From IMG/VR virus record IMGVR_UViG_3300047576_000028, positions 1-64,000 of that record: a stretch of 64,000 bases of DNA; one strand, 5' to 3'. The position numbers and the translations under genes are program-made. This document shows, in pieces, positions 1 to 8,022 of this stretch. Every line of letters begins with the position of its first letter. Position 1 is the stretch's first letter. A model generated the notes under the pieces. That model saw only the letters and a program-made list of their open reading frames with translations, searched no databases and had not been told where the DNA came from. Source of the DNA: a virus. Taxonomy: Duplodnaviria; Caudoviricetes.

Positions 1-25
1 AAGCAGTGGTATCAACGCAGAGTAC
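1..25 (+). other. SMART/SMARTer template-switch adapter (library artefact)
   Basis: Exact AAGCAGTGGTATCAACGCAGAGTAC at the contig start. Confidence 0.97.
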
Positions 26-37
26 TTCCGTGAAGCG

Positions 38-628
38 ATGGCCTTGCTTGAAGCGGCGGACGAAAAGCCCCTCACCGGGACAGTTGAAGTTGATGAGACT
101 TACATCGGCTCTAAGAAGTATGACGCACGTCGCAAGCGCGGACCCTACGAAAAGGAGCCGGTATTCGGCATGATCGAACGCGGCGGAAAGGCCCGCACCT
201 ATCACGTAGCGAAAGTAAACCGCCAGACCGTGATTAGCAAGATTGAGGATCACATCGACATAACCGCCGATGCGGTCTATACCGATGACAGCCCGATCTA
301 CAACAAGATGCCCGGTAACGTACAGAAGCACGAAAGCGTCAATCACTCCGCAAAGGAATGGGTGCGCGGCGATGTCCACACCGGAACGATTGATGGTTAC
401 TGGGGACTGCTGAAGCGGGGCATCATAGGCAGCTTCCACCAAGTCTCGATAAAGCATCTGCATCGTTACCTCAGCGAGTTCCAGTTCCGCTGGAACAATC
501 GGGAATCGCAACAGATGTTTGCGCTGGTCATCGCGGCGCTCGTAATAGGCTCCGCGCTTCCGTATGCGCAACTGATTGGCAAGGCCACTGCTATGACTCC
601 GGCTCCTGAATCATCTGAGGCTCAGTAG
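38..628 (+). mobile_element. IS1595-family (ISXO2-like) DDE transposase, 5'-truncated at the adapter
   Basis: VEVDETYIG, VYTDD, HESVNHS..EWVRGDVHTGTIDGYWGLLKRGIIGSFHQVSIKHLHRYLSEFQFRWNNR motifs. Confidence 0.93.
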
Positions 629-749
629 ACTCCACTTCGGGGCGCTCCTTCTTGGGGCGTCCCTTTCCCTCAAATGTTTTCATTGGCATAGGTGGCAGAG
701 CCAACAGGGCCTTTATCACTTTCTCGAATTGCGTCTTTTCAACTTTCAT
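591..749 (-). CDS. Small IS-associated hypothetical protein (MKVEKTQFEKVIKALLALPP...)
   Basis: ATG at 749 with upstream AAAGGA; converges on the transposase. Confidence 0.45.
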   Translation of the reverse strand: MKVEKTQFEKVIKALLALPPMPMKTFEGKGRPKKERPEVESTEPQMIQEPES

Positions 750-813
750 AGCATCCAATCCTTTTAGCAAAGGAGTTACAACCATGACACGCCAAACATC
801 CTCTAGTAACACC

Positions 814-897
814 GGAGGGCGTCTGGCCGGTGTCAGGAGCCGTCCTATAAACGGCTAGTCCGTTACGGACGCGGTTCGACTCCGCCGCCCTCTGCCA
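814..897 (+). tRNA. Non-canonical 8/4 allo-tRNA-like gene, anticodon UAU, G73, encoded CCA
   Basis: 8-bp acceptor GGAGGGCG/CGCCCTCT; D stem around a CGGT loop; anticodon arm GCCGT-CCTATAA-ACGGC; long variable arm GTCCG-TTA-CGGAC; 4-bp T stem GCGG-TTCGACT-CCGC; ends GCCA. Confidence 0.85.
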
Positions 898-899
898 AT

Positions 900-1886
900 T
901 CACTGTACATCGATCTGCCCGTTATAGCCTGGACAGGAGTTCCAGGAGTTAACGTAATGCTCGATCATGCCATCTTTCTTAATGGCGCGCCAACCCATAA
1001 AAGTGGCGCAAAAGTGAGCCTCATGCTTTCCTACGGAATCTAAAAATCTACAAGCGCCAATGACCATCACAAACTGTTTGCGGTCTGCGAGTGCCTGCTT
1101 TATCTCTGGGGTTGCCTTTTGTCCTGAGGGTTCATTCGCCACGTTCAAGAATGGGGGCGCATTAGGAACTACGCAATTCTTCTCTGGGCGTTTCGGAACA
1201 CCAGAAATGATTTTGGCATATTCTGCCTTCCAGTCACTAATAGCTGCACCCTCGGAGATTTCCGACTCGCTTGAAATTAACAGCATCTTACCGAATGGTT
1301 GCGGATTGCAAGCAAGATCAGTTCCGCGATTAACCCAGTTGATATTTAGCGTCATCGGTACTCCGACCGGGAAAGGATCTCCTGGATAATATCCGGTAAC
1401 GTCCGCCTGAATGTAAGCACTCGTGGTTGGTTTCTGAGTCTTCGGTATCGTCGGGATAGGTTTGTTATTGGCTTCCGATAACTGTTTTTGCAAATCGTTC
1501 ACATTGGCGCGTAGCCGATTCCGATCTCTAACTAGATCCTCATGGTCTCGGCTTATAACAGCGGGAATAGCAGCCGCAAATACCAAGATCAGCAAGACAG
1601 CCAACCCAAAAAGCGTAGCGCCCAATGTTTGAGTCAGAGTCTTTCCGCCTGCGGAGGTCAACACCTTCCACCTCCACCAACCCTTGCCGAGTGTGAAGCG
1701 CGCGGCAAGAGCGAACACCACAAGAGCGAGTAGGAAGTCCCTAATGATCGAAAACGTAGTAGCTGAGTTCCACGACAGAAATACCGGCCACGCGCGGGCG
1801 CAAAGGTGCCCAATGTGCGTCGCGGCAGAGACGGATGAAAAGTTAGAGGGCAGCACCACAACCCATTGTGGTCCCCAAACCGCCAC
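900..1886 (-). CDS. Membrane-anchored hypothetical protein (IS passenger); true start uncertain
   Basis: Two hydrophobic helices, a coiled coil, then a beta-rich C-terminal domain. Confidence 0.6.
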   Translation of the reverse strand: MAVWGPQWVVVLPSNFSSVSAATHIGHLCARAWPVFLSWNSATTFSIIRDFLLALVVFALAARFTLGKGWWRWKVLTSAGGKTLTQTLGATLFGLAVLLILVFAAAIPAVISRDHEDLVRDRNRLRANVNDLQKQLSEANNKPIPTIPKTQKPTTSAYIQADVTGYYPGDPFPVGVPMTLNINWVNRGTDLACNPQPFGKMLLISSESEISEGAAISDWKAEYAKIISGVPKRPEKNCVVPNAPPFLNVANEPSGQKATPEIKQALADRKQFVMVIGACRFLDSVGKHEAHFCATFMGWRAIKKDGMIEHYVNSWNSCPGYNGQIDVQ

Positions 1887-1899
1887 TTTGTCAAGTAGC

Positions 1900-2293
1900 T
1901 AGTAACGGATTCGCCGCCATGCACTCACAACCAAGCGGTTACCTCGGGTTTTTCCAGAACCAGGGATTATCGCCTTTCGACGCCCTGAACCCAGGTATGG
2001 CCCGTTAGCATGCCCGTCTTCCCTGCTGCCCTTTACTGCGCCTCACGACCTGCCCCCAGTTTTCAGTGTGGGATTCCGTTAATGGGCGGGCGGCTTGCGA
2101 GTGCCGCCCACCGGGTGTTTGTCCTTGGCTGCCTCTCGGCTCGCTCCGATTGTTACTGCCCCAAGGATCTTCTTTGTGGCTGTTCTTTTGGAGACCGCGC
2201 CACCAGCCTCCTGTCCTTTTGGCGTCTATCCGGTGTCAACCATCAAAATTCCAAAGGCCCCTACCGGGCCCGCCCTTCTGCCTTTACGGCATT
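1900..2293 (-). ncRNA. Putative ~390-nt structured ncRNA, family unrecognised
   Basis: No minus-strand ORF of 60 aa or more lies within it; several helices and GNRA-type loops; strong promoter upstream; 5' part repeated elsewhere. Confidence 0.55.
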
Positions 2294-2299
2294 GGCTAC

Positions 2300-2328
2300 A
2301 GCATATTATAAATCGTGGGCAATGTCAA
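2300..2328 (-). promoter_or_regulatory. Sigma70-type promoter TTGACA-N17-TATGCT
   Basis: Minus strand reads TTGACA ttgcccacgatttataa TATGCT. Confidence 0.7.
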
Positions 2329-2425
2329 GCACAACTTTTGGCGGGTAGTGCGCTATTTGTGTGTGCTTGATTCAAAACGGCATAGGCGATCTTCGGGTCA
2401 GCGCCCTAATTTATTGGCATGGCAA

Positions 2426-2480
2426 TTCAAGTTCTACCCGTTAGTTCTCCAACTCCATCTGCCTCAGCCGGAGACGCCGG
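2426..2480 (+). repeat. 55-bp exact copy of 46749-46803 (3' end of the prohead protease gene)
   Basis: TTCAAGTTCTACCCG...GAGACGCCGG identical at both sites. Confidence 0.95.
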
Positions 2481-2666
2481 CGCCCAACACTACCGACCAT
2501 CATTGCAAGGTGGTTTCCAGGTAATCCAGATACTTCTTGAGGCTGGCCACGAACTCCTTGCGGATGGCAGAATCGAAACGGACGCGGGCGAATACGACCC
2601 TGTCATCCTCCCTGCCCACGGGCGTAGATATTTCCTCCGGCGCTGTCATTTCGCGATCAGTGTCAT

Positions 2667-3122
2667 TCATGCCGATGGGTACCACTCACCAGCAAACAGC
2701 AATTCCTGTTGGGCGACCTCACACCGTTGCACGTGGTCCGGGTCCACGAAGCCATGCGGGCCGGGAAGATTCCAGTTCAGCCCACTAACAAGCCCGTGCT
2801 TGGCCGCGAGGTCCGCGAGGAACTGCCAGTCGCCTGCCCAGGAGGCAGCGCCCATGATGATCTTCGCAAAATCGCAGGCTAGGCCATAATGGTGAGTCCC
2901 GACCGTTCGCAGTTGCGTGGCCCTCTGCGAGAATAGCATCTCCTGTCGCTCCGCGCTACGGAATGTTTCAGTGACGATCAGCGAAATTCCAAGCGATTTC
3001 GCATCCGCAATAATATTCGCCACCGCTATTCTCGTAAAATGCTCGAGCAGGGCCACGTCGCGACACTCTACGGGCGAGTGGAAACGCGGATCTGGCTGAA
3101 TTACGTCGGTGTAGAAGCTCAT
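2667..3122 (-). CDS. Endolysin, peptidase M15 (L-Ala-D-Glu peptidase-like)
   Basis: ETFRSAERQEML, THHYGLACDF and DPDHVQ zinc-peptidase motifs. Confidence 0.88.
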   Translation of the reverse strand: MSFYTDVIQPDPRFHSPVECRDVALLEHFTRIAVANIIADAKSLGISLIVTETFRSAERQEMLFSQRATQLRTVGTHHYGLACDFAKIIMGAASWAGDWQFLADLAAKHGLVSGLNWNLPGPHGFVDPDHVQRCEVAQQELLFAGEWYPSA

Positions 3123-3370
3123 CCTAGCGCCGCCTTCAGCATGGACTCAATGCGGCCCATCGAAATAATGAAAGGTTTGTCGAAAACCGTGACGGTGAGA
3201 GTAAGGGCGATTGGATCGTACTCCGCGTTCGCCACAATCCCGTGTCCGGTGATGTGCATCTGGTTAGGGCCAGTAGCCGCTAGGAAAGCGCCGTCCTTTG
3301 CCAAATCCGCTTCAAGCCCGGCGATCTGGGATGGTGTGATGTTGGAGATGGTGAATGTTTGGGGTGTCAT
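3119..3370 (-). CDS. Hypothetical protein
   Basis: ATGA overlap with the endolysin. Confidence 0.6.
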   Translation of the reverse strand: MTPQTFTISNITPSQIAGLEADLAKDGAFLAATGPNQMHITGHGIVANAEYDPIALTLTVTVFDKPFIISMGRIESMLKAALG

Positions 3371-3589
3371 ATTTAGGGGGATTATACAGTTACCACATAC
3401 AAACCAGTCACCGGATATACGTTAGCTCCCGTAGCGGGAATTGCCGTCCTTCTTGCAATTCGGTACGTAGAGAGTCCAGAGGAACTAGAAAGTGGCACGA
3501 GCAAGCAAATCCAGTTTGTCCTGACCCCTCCGCAATGCCTAGAAATTGCGGAGGCAATGACCAGACAGGCAGAACGCCTACGTGGGGAG

Positions 3590-3772
3590 CGGTTGCGGCT
3601 AACGGATGCGTTCTCCAAGAAGATCGAGTATCATGTGGCATCGTTGGCAATCCAGTACGTATACTATAACTTCGTCAGGATTCATCAGACCCTTCGGGTG
3701 ACTCCGGCTATGGCAGCGCGGGTGACTGATCGGCTATGGTCGGTTGAAGATATCGTTACTCTCATGAAATGA
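3590..3772 (+). pseudogene. C-terminal fragment of an IS1-like transposase
   Basis: RLTDAFSKKIEYH...YYNFVRIHQTLRVTPAMAA..TDRLWSVEDIV; the N-terminus is replaced by unrelated sequence. Confidence 0.85.
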
Positions 3773-4766
3773 TCGTGCGCTTGGCCAGTTCACGTCTTAT
3801 GATATCCACAAGCCCACGCGGAACGCGCGGCCTTCCCTCGTCTTCCCACGCCTTCCTGATTATTGCAACAGACTCATCGGCCAAGATCGCAGCGTCGTCT
3901 TTAGCTCCAGGAACGGGAATCTTTACCTGCGTATAATGCCCTACGCCAGAAGCGGATTCAGAAACAAATTTAGCCTCACAGACGTGATAGAGAACCCGCG
4001 CCAGCTCCATCTCTGAATTAAAGGAATGACTCAGCAGAGTGTTGGCCACGCCGTATTCTCCGATCCCGATAGCCGCCCATCCGGTAACGTCATAATTAAA
4101 GGCAACGCCTGGATTTCTCACTGTGAATATATGGCCGTCCATGTTCCAATCGAAACCACCGATGATAACCTCAAACCCAAGGTCAACCTTTTTAAGTTCC
4201 TCGGCCAAGTGCGGTTGCCACTCCGGCTTTTCGGTAAACGTTTTCCAGGTCAGCCCGACTGGGAATAAAACTACGGATTCAGCATGTCGTGCCCATTGGC
4301 TCCGATACGCTATCGTTACGCAATGCGAGACTGCCTCTAACGTATTTTCTTCGTCAGGCAGCCTGGACAGCAAGAGCGTGGCTGCTTCAATTATTGGCGC
4401 TACATGGCCAAGGCTGCTCGCGGCAATCATCGCCCACCATGACTGACCTATCGGGAACAGTTTACCAGCGGTCCTGTCTCCAGAAAACTGCTCAGTGGAC
4501 AGCATACTGTCGCACACCAAGACTAAAGATTTCCCAACATCAGCAAGCGCTGCGATGCAGACCGTCATATACCTGCGATCATACATCAACTGTATTGCTT
4601 TGCGGGCTTCTGGGCGGTTTTGCCACCCAGGCGGGTCTGCATACACCACGCTGGAATGTGGGTCGTGCCAAGGGGCCGGTCCCCCCACGTAGGACCCGGC
4701 GGACCTGCCCATATAAGGCCCCCGAACGCCTGGTGTGGTTGCTGGGTGATATGATTGCGTTGCCAT
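3762..4766 (-). CDS. Proteasome-beta/Ntn-hydrolase-like protein 1 (core starts at Met-Thr, 4568)
   Basis: MTVCIAA..D..K N-terminus, EVIIGGFD, GHIFTV, WAAIGIG, GVG. Confidence 0.72.
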   Translation of the reverse strand: MATQSYHPATTPGVRGPYMGRSAGSYVGGPAPWHDPHSSVVYADPPGWQNRPEARKAIQLMYDRRYMTVCIAALADVGKSLVLVCDSMLSTEQFSGDRTAGKLFPIGQSWWAMIAASSLGHVAPIIEAATLLLSRLPDEENTLEAVSHCVTIAYRSQWARHAESVVLFPVGLTWKTFTEKPEWQPHLAEELKKVDLGFEVIIGGFDWNMDGHIFTVRNPGVAFNYDVTGWAAIGIGEYGVANTLLSHSFNSEMELARVLYHVCEAKFVSESASGVGHYTQVKIPVPGAKDDAAILADESVAIIRKAWEDEGRPRVPRGLVDIIRRELAKRTIIS

Positions 4767-4889
4767 GGCTGAAACCGTAACGTGTCCGAAATGCGGTGCT
4801 GAAGGCGAATATCTCAGAACGTGTTGCAGGAAGTGCGGCGACTACATCCCCGCCCTAGTTGCGAAGGCAGAAACGGCGGCGGGGCAGCC

Positions 4890-5885
4890 TTATGGTTTAC
4901 GGATTGACGGCCATTGAGTAATGCTTCCTTCGTTGATAAGTTCGATAACCCCACGGGGAACGCTAGGAGCGCCATAACCATCCCACGCCTTCCTCACATC
5001 GTCTATCAATCCAGGACGATGTTGGCTGAAAATAGAACCAAATTGCATCACGTACAGATAGGTGTCTCTCCCAATTCCACTACGTTCCGCCATAAACTTA
5101 GAAGCACATAGCGCAAACACTGTTTCCGATAGAGATTTGTCTGTCGCCTGCTGGAAATAGTATAGCATCGCATCAGCGGCGTACATTCCCGACCCGATAC
5201 AGCAGAAACCGGGTTTGTCAAACGTGCGGTCTATTCCCGGATCGCTCACCGTAAAGATGTGCGCCCTTCCGGCCCCGTCGAATCCGAACACCAAGAACTC
5301 GCACCCAACTTTAACCGCATCCATGTTTTCGCAAAGCGAAGCAAATATCTTATCCGTAAACCTTCGCTTACCAGACTTCTGGAACGTATCCATATTAAGA
5401 CCATATCCAGAAAGAACCGCATCTGTCTTCATCTCAACCAAATGCTGCTGGTAAGCCTTCTTAAAAGCCACCCTAGCGGTCGCTACAGTGTTAGCGCGAT
5501 GGTGCATGTACTTTGATGCCCGTTGGATTATCGGCAACGCTTGCGTGATATCATCTCCTGAAATCATCGCTAACCAGTCCCTAGCGAACGGCTCCATTTT
5601 CAGAGTGCATCCATCAGCCGAAATAGTAGAACCGGAAACCATCGTATCGGATATCGTGACGATGTAGTCGCCGGTAATTGCAGCCGCACAGAGCGTCATG
5701 CGCTTCTCCTTGGATATTCTCCAAGGATACCGCGTATACTTGACCGTTTGTGGATCGGGACGCCTGACGGGGCGCGGAACGGGCCGCTGTATCGCTGGCC
5801 GGTGGAAGGCCTGTGGACGGATCTCCGGCTTGCCCCGGAATGACCGGCGGGTTGTGTACGGTGATAGCGGGGAAGACTCCATCAC
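4890..5885 (-). CDS. Proteasome-beta/Ntn-hydrolase-like protein 2 (core starts at Met-Thr, 5699)
   Basis: MTLCAAA..SD..K, EFLVFGFD, AHIFTV, CIGSG, GIG. Confidence 0.75.
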   Translation of the reverse strand: MMESSPLSPYTTRRSFRGKPEIRPQAFHRPAIQRPVPRPVRRPDPQTVKYTRYPWRISKEKRMTLCAAAITGDYIVTISDTMVSGSTISADGCTLKMEPFARDWLAMISGDDITQALPIIQRASKYMHHRANTVATARVAFKKAYQQHLVEMKTDAVLSGYGLNMDTFQKSGKRRFTDKIFASLCENMDAVKVGCEFLVFGFDGAGRAHIFTVSDPGIDRTFDKPGFCCIGSGMYAADAMLYYFQQATDKSLSETVFALCASKFMAERSGIGRDTYLYVMQFGSIFSQHRPGLIDDVRKAWDGYGAPSVPRGVIELINEGSITQWPSIRKP

Positions 5886-5929
5886 CGCAATCCTCCCGCC
5901 AAACTGGGGTGGGTTTTTCCGCTCATAAA

Positions 5930-5948
5930 TTCAAACTGACCCACTACC
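5930..5948 (+). mobile_element. Right terminal inverted repeat of the IS1-like element
   Basis: TTCAAACTGACCCACTACC (reverse complement GGTAGTGGGTCAGTTTGAA), downstream of the transposase fragment and cargo. Confidence 0.75.
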
Positions 5949-6155
5949 GAAAATAGAACCAAATTGCATCGGGACGGAAGTCAAATCGCTCAGACACCAG
6001 TTGACAGCTACAATAAAGACGACGAGCAACAATACTCCCAAGGCAAGGTAGCGTCCATAATGGCGGGTAGTTGATACGACCGAGAAAAGCACAAGGCCAA
6101 TTCCTAATGAACCGGAAACAACAGCTAAACATAAATGAAGCAATCTATACACCAT
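5931..6155 (-). CDS. Small two-TM membrane protein; 3' end supplied by a copied segment and the IS end
   Basis: Hydrophobic helices; ends MQFGSIFGSGSV. Confidence 0.5.
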   Translation of the reverse strand: MVYRLLHLCLAVVSGSLGIGLVLFSVVSTTRHYGRYLALGVLLLVVFIVAVNWCLSDLTSVPMQFGSIFGSGSV

Positions 6156-6484
6156 CAGTTGCCGTCCTTAATGCAGTGCCAGGTTGTGAGCCACAGTTCC
6201 AGCAATGGCCGTAGCCACCGAGGATTTCCGGGAGCGCGATGGCCAACATCGGAGCGCCATGCCGACCCTCGGACCACAATCGACTGCCAGGGGATCGGCA
6301 GATCGTGCGGCGCTGGGCTGATGGCTGCGGCGCGGTAGGCGGCCTGGAGCATATCGCGTTCGCGCAAGTCTGGCCCGCGGTCTCGGGCATGCTGGAAAAT
6401 CGCATCACGCCTCTCCGCTTCTGCCTGAGACTCCGTGCGCGCCAGAAACGCAGAAAGTGTTTCGCGTTCAGTCCTTCCTACCAC
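6155..6484 (-). CDS. Hypothetical protein
   Basis: Tightly coupled ORF in the lysis region. Confidence 0.45.
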   Translation of the reverse strand: MVGRTERETLSAFLARTESQAEAERRDAIFQHARDRGPDLRERDMLQAAYRAAAISPAPHDLPIPWQSIVVRGSAWRSDVGHRAPGNPRWLRPLLELWLTTWHCIKDGN

Positions 6485-6825
6485 TTGGCGATTGTCCTTG
6501 GATTGGGCACGTAGAGTGCCTTGCCGGGCGGCTCCGCTGCCGCATGCGCCTGGGCCGGAGGTGAAGCCGCCGCAAGGCTCGCCACCACAACAGGGTCAGC
6601 CACCTTCACCAATCCAGCTTGCTGAACATCGCCACCGGTCACATGGGAATCCTTGGCGTTGATGCCAAGCGCCGCCAGCCCGCCAACCGCCGCAAACATT
6701 GCCACCGCCGCTATCCATTGCGGGAAATGGATGGATAGCGGCGGTTGGGACGCGAACAGAACGAAGGACGCAGCGGCAGAGACGGCAGCAGAGATAGTGG
6801 TCTTTTGATTTGCGCCGATGGTCAC
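6478..6825 (-). CDS. Holin-like two-TM protein
   Basis: NQKTT...two TM helices...LGINAKD pattern; near the endolysin. Confidence 0.6.
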   Translation of the reverse strand: MTIGANQKTTISAAVSAAASFVLFASQPPLSIHFPQWIAAVAMFAAVGGLAALGINAKDSHVTGGDVQQAGLVKVADPVVVASLAAASPPAQAHAAAEPPGKALYVPNPRTIAKW

Positions 6826-7052
6826 GACCCCACCACGGGCGGAGTCAGCGCCAACTGGGCCACATCGTTAGGCCCTACAGTCCCCAAAACAGTCGCGATG
6901 GCCCCAGCAAGAGTTAGTGCTTCAGCGGCACTTATGTTCGGGTTTTGCGTTCGTATCCCGATAAAAGCGTTCCACAAGGCAATGCCACCTGGAATTGCGG
7001 CGACGATGCCCTGTAGTACGTCGAGTCCGACAGTGACTGTAGTGGTCTCCAT
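6822..7052 (-). CDS. Small hydrophobic hypothetical protein
   Basis: GTGA overlap with the holin-like gene. Confidence 0.55.
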   Translation of the reverse strand: METTTVTVGLDVLQGIVAAIPGGIALWNAFIGIRTQNPNISAAEALTLAGAIATVLGTVGPNDVAQLALTPPVVGS

Positions 7053-7059
7053 AATAACG

Positions 7060-7500
7060 TTACGCGGCCTGCGCTACGACCGGCGGCTTAGGCGTTGCCG
7101 CCACTTGTGCCTGCAACTGTGCCTCAAACTCCGCTACGGCATTGGAAATAGCTACAGCCCCATTGACGATAGCCGGGATCATGTTCAGCGCCGCTGGCGA
7201 CAACCCCACATTCTTCCCGATAATCGCTATGACCGATTCCAAGTTTGGAGTTTGCGCCTGCAAGATGGCGATTGCGGACTGTTGTTTGGCCTGCCCTTGT
7301 TGCACGCCGGTTATCAAGGTCTCCATCGCATTGGTTGCGCCGAATGCGATAGGAATGATCTCTGCCGCCAGAGGCCCGAACACAGGGATAGTATCGACGA
7401 TAGGAAGCAATGCATTGACTTCCGGCGCGACCGCCTGGATGCCGCCAAGGACGTTCCCGACAACCGATTCGACCTTGAGGAGAACGGATTTGAAACTAAA
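7060..7500 (-). CDS. Amphipathic hypothetical protein; original start apparently lost at the IS remnant
   Basis: Frame stays open upstream of the TTG at 7410 (SFKSVLLKVESVVGNVLGG...). Confidence 0.6.
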   Translation of the reverse strand, partial: FSFKSVLLKVESVVGNVLGGIQAVAPEVNALLPIVDTIPVFGPLAAEIIPIAFGATNAMETLITGVQQGQAKQQSAIAILQAQTPNLESVIAIIGKNVGLSPAALNMIPAIVNGAVAISNAVAEFEAQLQAQVAATPKPPVVAQAA

Positions 7501-7528
7501 AGCCCCCGGCTTTAGCCGTGGAGTTCAC
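7496..7528 (+). mobile_element. IS200/IS605 right-end remnant A
   Basis: CTAAAAGCCCCCGGCTTTAGCCGTGGAGTTCAC; terminal TCAC supplies the TGA of 7525..8022. Confidence 0.8.
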
Positions 7529-8022
7529 TGGCGCACCTTTGATCCAACCTTTACCGTTCGCTTCGCCAGCGATGTCACCTGCGATTTCTCGGCAGCCGTG
7601 GCGACCGGAGTTTGTGGGGTGAAATAGGCGACAATGACTTGCAGCGCCGCATTGAACGCGGAGAGATATTGCTGGGCCTGCGGACTGAACAGTGAGATGT
7701 TCACCTGCCCGATGCACTTGGTAACGGACAACGCCTCAACAGCCCCGCCTGCATTCGCTTGTACAGCAACTTCGATACAGGCTAATGCCGAGTTTAACAA
7801 AGCTCCGCCTGCCTGCACTTCCGATTTGACGTTAGCCGGGATATTGGGGAGCGCTGCCACCAGAGCCTCGCCAGCTTCGACGCCTAGCGTTACATCAGCC
7901 ACGATCTGGCTAGGCGTAGGGGCGGGCGGAGTTGGGCCGGTGGACGTTGAGGCGCAGCCGACCATGAGCATTGCGCCGCACAAGGCGAGCGCGAGAAGTT
8001 GTACGTTGATTCGGTTCTTCAT
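7525..8022 (-). CDS. Lipoprotein (possible spanin or lysis accessory)
   Basis: Signal peptide with an LMVGC lipobox. Confidence 0.7.
   Translation of the reverse strand: MKNRINVQLLALALCGAMLMVGCASTSTGPTPPAPTPSQIVADVTLGVEAGEALVAALPNIPANVKSEVQAGGALLNSALACIEVAVQANAGGAVEALSVTKCIGQVNISLFSPQAQQYLSAFNAALQVIVAYFTPQTPVATAAEKSQVTSLAKRTVKVGSKVRQ

Follow-up and report, generated by a model that had tools for sequence, protein, structure and literature searches.

I propose that the tRNA encoded at positions 814 to 897 of this phage DNA (the window, a stretch of 64,000 nucleotides) is a functional 8/4 allo-tRNA(UAU), that it is a fixed component of an IS1595 transposon, and that it most likely decodes AUA codons within two genes of that transposon, those of the transposase and of a small ORF, probably as serine. 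I hold this proposal, taken whole, with moderate confidence. It is built on the fold of the tRNA and its covariation, its position within the insertion sequence, its constancy throughout one transposon clade, the conservation of ATA codons in genes of the element, and the fact that the columns holding those codons are not hydrophobic in character. From these I infer that the tRNA is expressed, charged with serine and used by the ribosome, and that the element benefits.

The tRNA gene and the element that carries it

The tRNA has the following parts.

814-897, plus strand: 8/4 allo-tRNA(UAU), as judged by ARAGORN, Rfam, minimum-free-energy fold and covariation
814-821 with 886-893, plus strand: acceptor stem of 8 bp, its first pair the wobble G1-U72
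822-837, plus strand: D arm, stem of 6 bp, loop of 4 nt
838-856, plus strand: anticodon arm, stem of 6 bp, loop CCUAUAA
845, plus strand: C33
846-848, plus strand: anticodon UAU
858-870, plus strand: variable arm, stem of 4 bp, loop of 5 nt
871-885, plus strand: T arm, stem of 4 bp, loop UUCGACU
894, plus strand: G73
895-897, plus strand: encoded CCA

The gene is 84 nt long, and its acceptor stem joins the D arm without a linker. A sequence-only reading had drawn this cloverleaf (8-bp acceptor, 4-bp T stem, Sec-like D arm, variable arm, G73 and CCA), and the minimum-free-energy fold of 814-897 is exactly the same (-39.7 kcal/mol, z -2.4). The UAU anticodon and the C33 that it described are indeed there. 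It also expected that standard scanners might miss the gene, which they do not. ARAGORN calls it tRNA-Ile(tat) and reports no other tRNA in the window or elsewhere on the 97,001-bp contig. In the window it just passes the threshold of the Rfam tRNA-Sec model (47.4 bits, the gathering score being 47; E 2e-6), in an alignment that lacks both linker nucleotides (8 and 9) and a fifth T pair.

Neither label fits. A tRNA-Sec has the anticodon UCA and an 8/5 branch of 13 bp, while 814-897 has UAU and an 8/4 branch. A tRNA-Ile belongs to class I, with a 7/5 branch, A73 and either GAU or lysidine-modified CAU, while here there are a long variable arm, G73, an 8/4 branch and U34. What does fit is the description of allo-tRNAs, defined by Mukai et al. 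(Nucleic Acids Res 2017; PMC5389517) as having 8/4 or 9/3 acceptor branches. The gene has the 12-bp acceptor branch (8-bp acceptor plus 4-bp T stem), the tRNA-Sec-like D arm, the long variable arm, the long anticodon stem, and G73 (either G or U is found at this position in allo-tRNAs) at 894 together with a non-serine anticodon at 846-848. It adds one more member to the allo-tRNA(UAU) group already published and does not constitute a new class, and it carries a class-II Ser-type body, with its long variable arm, G73, G2-C71 and A3-U70. A 9/3 reading, in which the Rfam alignment forms a ninth acceptor pair C813-G894, was rejected, as that pair is not conserved in relatives.

The surrounding element occupies the start of the window.

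26-628, plus strand: IS1595-family (ISXO2-like DDE) transposase, C-terminal 200 codons (PF12762, E 3.4e-33)
260-262, 425-427, 449-451 and 545-547, plus strand: ATA codons of the transposase, in columns that are ATA in nearly all relatives
591-749, minus strand: small ORF of 52 aa, antisense and overlapping the 3' end of the transposase gene, found by tblastn in related elements
714-716, minus strand: ATA codon of the small ORF
900-1886, minus strand: cargo ORF of up to 328 aa, start uncertain, with two transmembrane segments predicted from hydropathy
1883-1907, minus strand: right terminal inverted repeat with an inward TTGACA (motif scan)

The Pfam match covers profile positions 2-153 of 153, the N-terminal part of the transposase lying beyond the start of the contig, and the fragment is 94% identical in amino acids to a copy in a Bryobacterales MAG. 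The cargo ORF, which has no Pfam or PHROGs family and no homologue in the other loci, converges on the 3' end of the tRNA; the small ORF likewise has no Pfam or PHROGs family. The element's right end is at 1907, followed at 1908-1915 by what would be the copy of the target site. The right repeat is nearly identical to the right end of the closely related element L002 and is of the type CGT.A.TA.CTACTTGACAA, found at both ends of relatives; at it lies a promoter-like TTGACA-18-CACAAT, directed inward. Only this right repeat is seen in the window, the left end falling beyond the contig start. A second promoter-like sequence, TTGACA-N17-TATGCT at 2300-2335 on the minus strand, faces the right end of the IS across about 390 nt devoid of ORFs and is outside the element as delimited.

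The assembly broke inside the IS, which is therefore truncated by assembly and not by decay. The contig opens with a 25-nt PCR primer of the SMART/template-switch type (window 1-25) and closes with its reverse complement (96977-97001), so the contig ends are artificial, both being untrimmed amplification adaptors. The possibility that the tRNA is a prophage att site was considered and rejected: its 3' part is not repeated within the 97-kb contig, and the N-terminus of the transposase is absent from the other contig end. Near that end, about 3 kb apart, are two ORFs of 392 aa each (88132-89310 and 91260-92438 of contig G000:C1), equal in length, start and counts of Ile codons. Their match to the C-terminus of the transposase is weak (41% over 49 aa).

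Relatives of the element and the constancy of its tRNA

With the transposase fragment as query, 20 loci were found in Acidobacteriota MAGs (Bryobacterales, Terriglobia), and an alignment of full-length transposases brought in 80 loci from soil and peat metagenomes. In nearly every member of the clade whose contig is long enough, ARAGORN and a covariance model find a tRNA(UAU) downstream of the transposase. One exception is L012, in which an 8/4 tRNA with an ACC anticodon takes its place. This tRNA (L012 4831-4904) has a short variable region, and the L012 transposase still has six ATA codons; L012 may rely on tRNA(UAU) from other copies.

The limits of the element are clearest in L014 and L015, identical copies of 2,897 bp at two sites of one genome, each with its own 8-bp target duplication and inverted repeats of about 25 bp, the tRNA lying between the repeats. 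In eleven further elements, 2.1-4.6 kb in length, repeat pairs of the CGTGATTATCTACTTGACAA type enclose the tRNA, which in one of the eleven is on the opposite strand. Target duplications of 8 bp are also present at L002, and repeat pairs in 12 elements. The order is left repeat, transposase, small ORF, tRNA, variable cargo, right repeat. The cargo varies among Gp49/HI1420 toxin-antitoxin modules, HicA, IrrE-XRE, DUF3800, Bro-N and P63C; what stays constant is the transposase, the Ser-type tRNA(UAU) and the small ORF. The last (about 50-60 aa, with QFxxV[IL]xALLxxPPMPM and a basic tail) was found by tblastn in 14 related elements in two arrangements, either antisense over the 3' end of the transposase gene or in sense near the right repeat. 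The tRNA had at first been placed next to an IS1595 transposase. The link to the transposase holds, but the tRNA lies inside the transposon, as a constant passenger.

Beyond these loci, a search of 151 Acidobacteriota genomes with covariance model R1, in which 30 candidates per genome were scored, gave matches in at least 7 of the 151, mostly weak. Window positions 1-8000 have no blastn match in the phage collection. One exact 17-nt match to the anticodon arm turned up in viral contigs (locus L001) and was set aside as chance, there being no tRNA at that place.

Then there is the covariation. Among 13 homologues of the 8/4 type, 93% of cells pair and double changes occur at 15 of 24 pairs. None of 500 shuffles match the observed pairing and covariation, and slid registers pair at only 42-58%. 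The sequence-only reading had named loss of the 8/4 pairing in homologues as the result that would count against it; in the event the acceptor stem and the T stem are each 100% paired and each have three pairs with double changes. In the D stem, five of six pairs covary. The sixth pair of the anticodon stem, present in the window tRNA, is not conserved among homologues, and the T stem cannot gain a fifth pair, since opposite an invariant C column 64 holds C, U or A. The UAU anticodon is invariant among these homologues.

The same anticodon is found on a different body. In L005, L006, L017, L029 and L031 the tRNA is class II of the canonical 7/5 form, with G73 and UAU, and the best matches to that of L006 in host genomes are the hosts' tRNA-Ser genes. 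This lends support to the Ser-like identity that had been read from the window sequence. Both bodies, on either strand, retain UAU in the context A37-A38. Two Ser-type bodies with one anticodon in one clade suggest that serine identity combined with the reading of AUA is the property that selection keeps.

Comparison of the window with L002 shows how the tRNA fares against its surroundings. The two elements differ by about 12%, and the tRNA is their best-conserved segment, 95% identical, while the transposase stands at 89% and the spacer at 84%. The tRNA has four changes in 81 nt, every pair intact, and 49 of the 61 mismatches in the transposase are at third codon positions. Similarity ends right after G73-C74 of the tRNA (window 895, L002 4877) and resumes at the right inverted repeat; in between, the two elements carry different membrane-protein ORFs. 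The 3' end of the tRNA is thus a junction at which cargo is exchanged. Upstream, 100 nt are conserved only among the window, L002 and L016, a conservation attributable to the antisense small ORF that they encode. No sigma-70-like promoter was found upstream of the tRNA.

Most tRNAs of the clade have U33; within it only the window and L002 have C33. C33 prevents the formation of t6A37 by the E. coli enzymes (PMC8887486), for which reason the window copy may be a weaker decoder. C33 appears to be a maintained variant and not a sign of decay, since it is common to the diverged L002, recurs in two unrelated IS1595-borne tRNAs (L043 and L067) and lies in the best-conserved segment of the element.

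ATA codons in the genes of the element

The transposases of the tRNA(UAU) clade have 5-7 ATA codons (2-3 in the deepest branches), and these fall at fixed places. Codon 4 (M-N-L-ATA-D) is ATA in 20 of 20, the column KRGx-ATA-GSFH in 18 of 21, and two other columns in 15-16 of 21. All four ATA codons of the window transposase lie in shared ATA columns. The true Ile columns of the same transposases are filled with ATC or ATT, almost never ATA. In 11 of 14 elements the small ORF likewise keeps an ATA codon, always at the same site. Meanwhile, ATA accounts for 6% of the Ile codons in host flanking genes.

Lineages without a detected tRNA have few or no such codons. Transposases of the sister clade have 0-1 ATA codons, and no tRNA(UAU) is found in their available sequence. 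The nested lineage of L026 and L084 has no ATA codons (the L026 transposase is at 5001-5960) and no detected tRNA, Rfam showing none hidden downstream of the L026 transposase. Both TTA codons of that transposase, TTA being rare, occupy columns that were formerly ATA, a reminder of the published allo-tRNA(UAA) that inserts Ser. The link of the tRNA is specifically with AUA codons that the element conserves in its own genes.

What amino acid might be meant by these codons? TilS is present in all five hosts tested, so AUA is normally isoleucine in the hosts. A codon-meaning test in the style of Codetta, using an HMM made from unlinked relatives as outgroup, recovered its controls: ATC and ATT as Ile, AGC, TCC and TCG as Ser, and codons for Thr, Val, Lys and Ala correctly. 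It read ATA in unlinked ATA-rich transposases as Ile. In the linked clade it read ATA as Ala/Ser/Thr, the best residue leading Ile by 18.6 nats and Ser by 5.4 nats. Linked ATA columns have a median hydrophobic mass of 0.19 compared with 0.65-0.73 for others (Mann-Whitney p = 0.002 and 0.001), from an ingroup that is a single clade and has few independent columns (13). Within the clade, the partners of ATA are polar, Ser or small in 69% of cases, and the partners in ATC/ATT columns are hydrophobic in 75%. In the conserved VNHS motif, three elements have ATA in place of Ser, where Ile never occurs in the wider family, and at a neighboring site ATA alternates with AGC and TCC.

Against a serine reading, ATC, ATT or ATG takes the place of ATA in some elements at three of the columns; the nearest sister clade is hydrophobic at codon 4 and at two more of the ATA columns; and Phe is the alternative to ATA at the fixed site of the small ORF. 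Judging from substitution patterns, ATA is evidently no ordinary Ile codon in these genes, but on the choice between Ser and Ile those patterns are mixed. I therefore claim no one amino acid: it could be Ser, or a mixture of Ser and Ile at sites that tolerate both.

A parallel comes from more distant IS1595 relatives. L043, L067, L093, L062, L045 and L092 carry class-II tRNAs resembling tRNA-Leu (7/5, A73) with the anticodons UGG, AGG and UUA. Their transposases share a C-terminal site, GKRL[TM]Yxx-L-TxKT, where 44 of 66 family members have Leu. Here the carriers of tRNA-Leu-like tRNAs have CCA (three elements), CCT (one) or TAA (two), and in each case the codon matches the anticodon of the element's own tRNA. 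In the elements with TAA, the ORF stops at this place unless the codon is suppressed. The three-way match of codon and anticodon would be hard to explain unless the cargo tRNA reads the codon, and so appears to support recoding. I offer, tentatively and with less assurance than the proposal for AUA, the more general idea that IS1595 transposons operate a private code, in which a class-II tRNA with a switched anticodon is paired with matching sentinel codons (AUA; CCA, CCT, TAA) at fixed sites in the transposase, so that correct, full-length transposase would be made only where the tRNA is expressed.

A model for the element and its rivals

The model for the window is as follows. A copy of an IS1595 transposon, its left part off the start of the contig, has inserted into a phage genome. 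Its tRNA would decode AUA kept at fixed sites of the transposase and the small ORF, which would link production or activity of the transposase to a tRNA that the element itself supplies. Because SerRS ignores the anticodon, Ser is probably what this tRNA delivers, and it would do so in competition with the host's lysidine-containing tRNA-Ile2. At the sentinel AUA sites the outcome would be Ser, or Ser mixed with Ile. Counting against the model are the lack of a sigma-70-like promoter upstream of the tRNA, the negative suppression results for six allo-tRNA(UAU) bodies in E. coli (PMC5389517), and the presence of TilS in the hosts, so that AUA can be read without the element's tRNA.

A comparison of AUA use between phage and host had been called for, and the phage is the higher, with 9.4 ATA per 1000 codons in its genes and about 2.7 in host flanks. 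In the phage portal gene, ATA has the behavior of an Ile codon. Since the genes of the phage use AUA in this ordinary sense, the phage would gain nothing from a tRNA that inserts Ser. The element resembles a hitch-hiker, one that the phage possibly tolerates owing to the weakness of the C33 copy.

An alternative view is that the tRNA-shaped element, as RNA or DNA, is not used on the ribosome at all and acts as a processing signal for RNase P/Z, as a regulator, or as a site for recombination of cargo cassettes. When Mukai et al. changed UAU to CUA in six allo-tRNA(UAU) bodies to make amber suppressors, none of the six suppressed in E. coli, and they considered that the UAU group may not serve translation (PMC5389517), a view repeated in a review (PMC7609411). 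The C33 of the window copy, and a cargo-swap junction placed exactly after G73-C74, are in the same vein. It is difficult to see, however, why such a role would need UAU and A37-A38 to be retained in bodies of both kinds, 8/4 and 7/5, and regardless of strand, and it leaves unexplained both the conserved ATA codons and the anticodon-codon match of the Leu type. I consider it unlikely, though it withstands the evidence better than the other alternatives.

Perhaps instead the tRNA is cargo for general mistranslation (toxin-like, addictive or anti-phage), placing Ser at AUA throughout the proteome to the detriment of AUA-rich invaders and bearing no special relation to the transposase. Something of this kind, an anti-defence device, was suggested on first reading. 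Ser-inserting allo-tRNAs are toxic in E. coli (PMC5389517), the neighboring cargo is rich in toxin-antitoxin and defence-type genes, and the phage, with its higher ATA content read as Ile, would be vulnerable. That vulnerability is also the difficulty, for the element sits within a phage that such a tRNA would harm, and no evidence for a general anti-defence role was found. General mistranslation predicts neither the conservation of ATA in the element's two constant genes nor the low ATA content of lineages with no detected tRNA, and I judge it quite improbable.

A third possibility is a helper for AUA that accepts isoleucine, charged by IleRS by virtue of UAU and serving AUA-rich mobile DNA such as the phage. 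ARAGORN's label would then be correct, the phage is relatively rich in ATA and uses it as Ile, and some of the ATA columns of the transposase are hydrophobic. Most of them are not, however, and the body, with G73 in place of A73 and a long variable arm, resembles tRNA-Ser or tRNA-Sec. Moreover, ordinary bacterial IleRS reportedly charges U34 tRNA-Ile poorly, according to work on Mycoplasma mobile. C33 should also prevent t6A37, a determinant for IleRS (PMC8887486). The chance of this I put as slim.

That the tRNA is a decaying pseudogene, inactivated by U33C and passively carried by a truncated IS, as the sequence-only reading had allowed because of C33, is very improbable. In its favor, U33 is almost universal, most relatives have it, and degenerate copies of allo-tRNA(UAU) have been described (Mukai et al., PMC5389517), but all stems are intact, C33 is common to L002 across about 12% divergence with no broken pair (and with the tRNA changing less than the transposase), it recurs in independent IS1595-borne tRNAs, and the truncation is due to assembly.

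Significance and known systems

The allo-tRNA(UAU) tRNAs are the largest group of allo-tRNAs and have been without a function since 2017. The present analysis gives them an exact address, as constant passengers of one IS1595 transposon clade, and a partner that can be tested, the conserved AUA codons of the transposase and small ORF. In the paper library searched, no paper links IS1595 to a passenger tRNA, and AUA codons in transposases are absent from both the paper of Mukai et al. (PMC5389517) and the review (PMC7609411). If the coupling is real, a transposon would control or recode its own enzyme with a private tRNA, which would be a mode of self-regulation new to insertion sequences and a naturally occurring ambiguity in a sense codon, AUA standing for Ser or Ile. 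Annotation would also be affected, in that the element's proteins may be mistranslated in silico and the tRNA mislabelled as tRNA-Ile.

The closest known system is the allo-tRNA(UAU) group itself (PMC5389517), UAU being the most abundant anticodon among allo-tRNAs and found in Acidobacteria near transposon and toxin-antitoxin genes. The window tRNA is like its members in its 12-bp branch split 8/4, its Sec-like long D stem and tetraloop, its long variable arm, G73 and UAU, its acidobacterial origin, its neighborhood of transposon and toxin-antitoxin genes, and even the manner of detection, the group having first been found through a tRNA-Sec covariance model. It differs from the published group in C33, in having all stems intact, in its encoded CCA and in lying on a phage contig. 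The earlier paper gives no element boundaries, transposase family or AUA codons in the transposase, and it leans toward a role outside translation (PMC5389517).

Bacterial tRNA-Sec (RF01852) has the same extended acceptor, 6-bp D stem with 4-nt loop, long anticodon stem and long variable arm. It has UCA where the window tRNA has UAU and an 8/5 branch where the latter has 8/4, and the window tRNA is borne by an IS and has no linker nucleotides 8 and 9. With tRNA-Ile2 (CAU with lysidine) or tRNA-Ile(UAU), the window tRNA has in common the codon AUA, but its body is class II and of the Ser type, with G73 and no features of the Ile type.

The broader precedent is that of a dedicated tRNA gating a set of genes by means of a rare or reassigned codon, as seen with tRNAs of phages and mobile elements, with the suppressor tRNAs of recoded phages, and with the tRNA-Leu(UAA) of Streptomyces bldA and its TTA codons. 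Two things set the present case apart from bldA and the phage tRNAs. The unit is an insertion sequence of 2-5 kb whose proposed dependent gene is the transposase itself, and the body of the tRNA and its anticodon belong to different amino acids.
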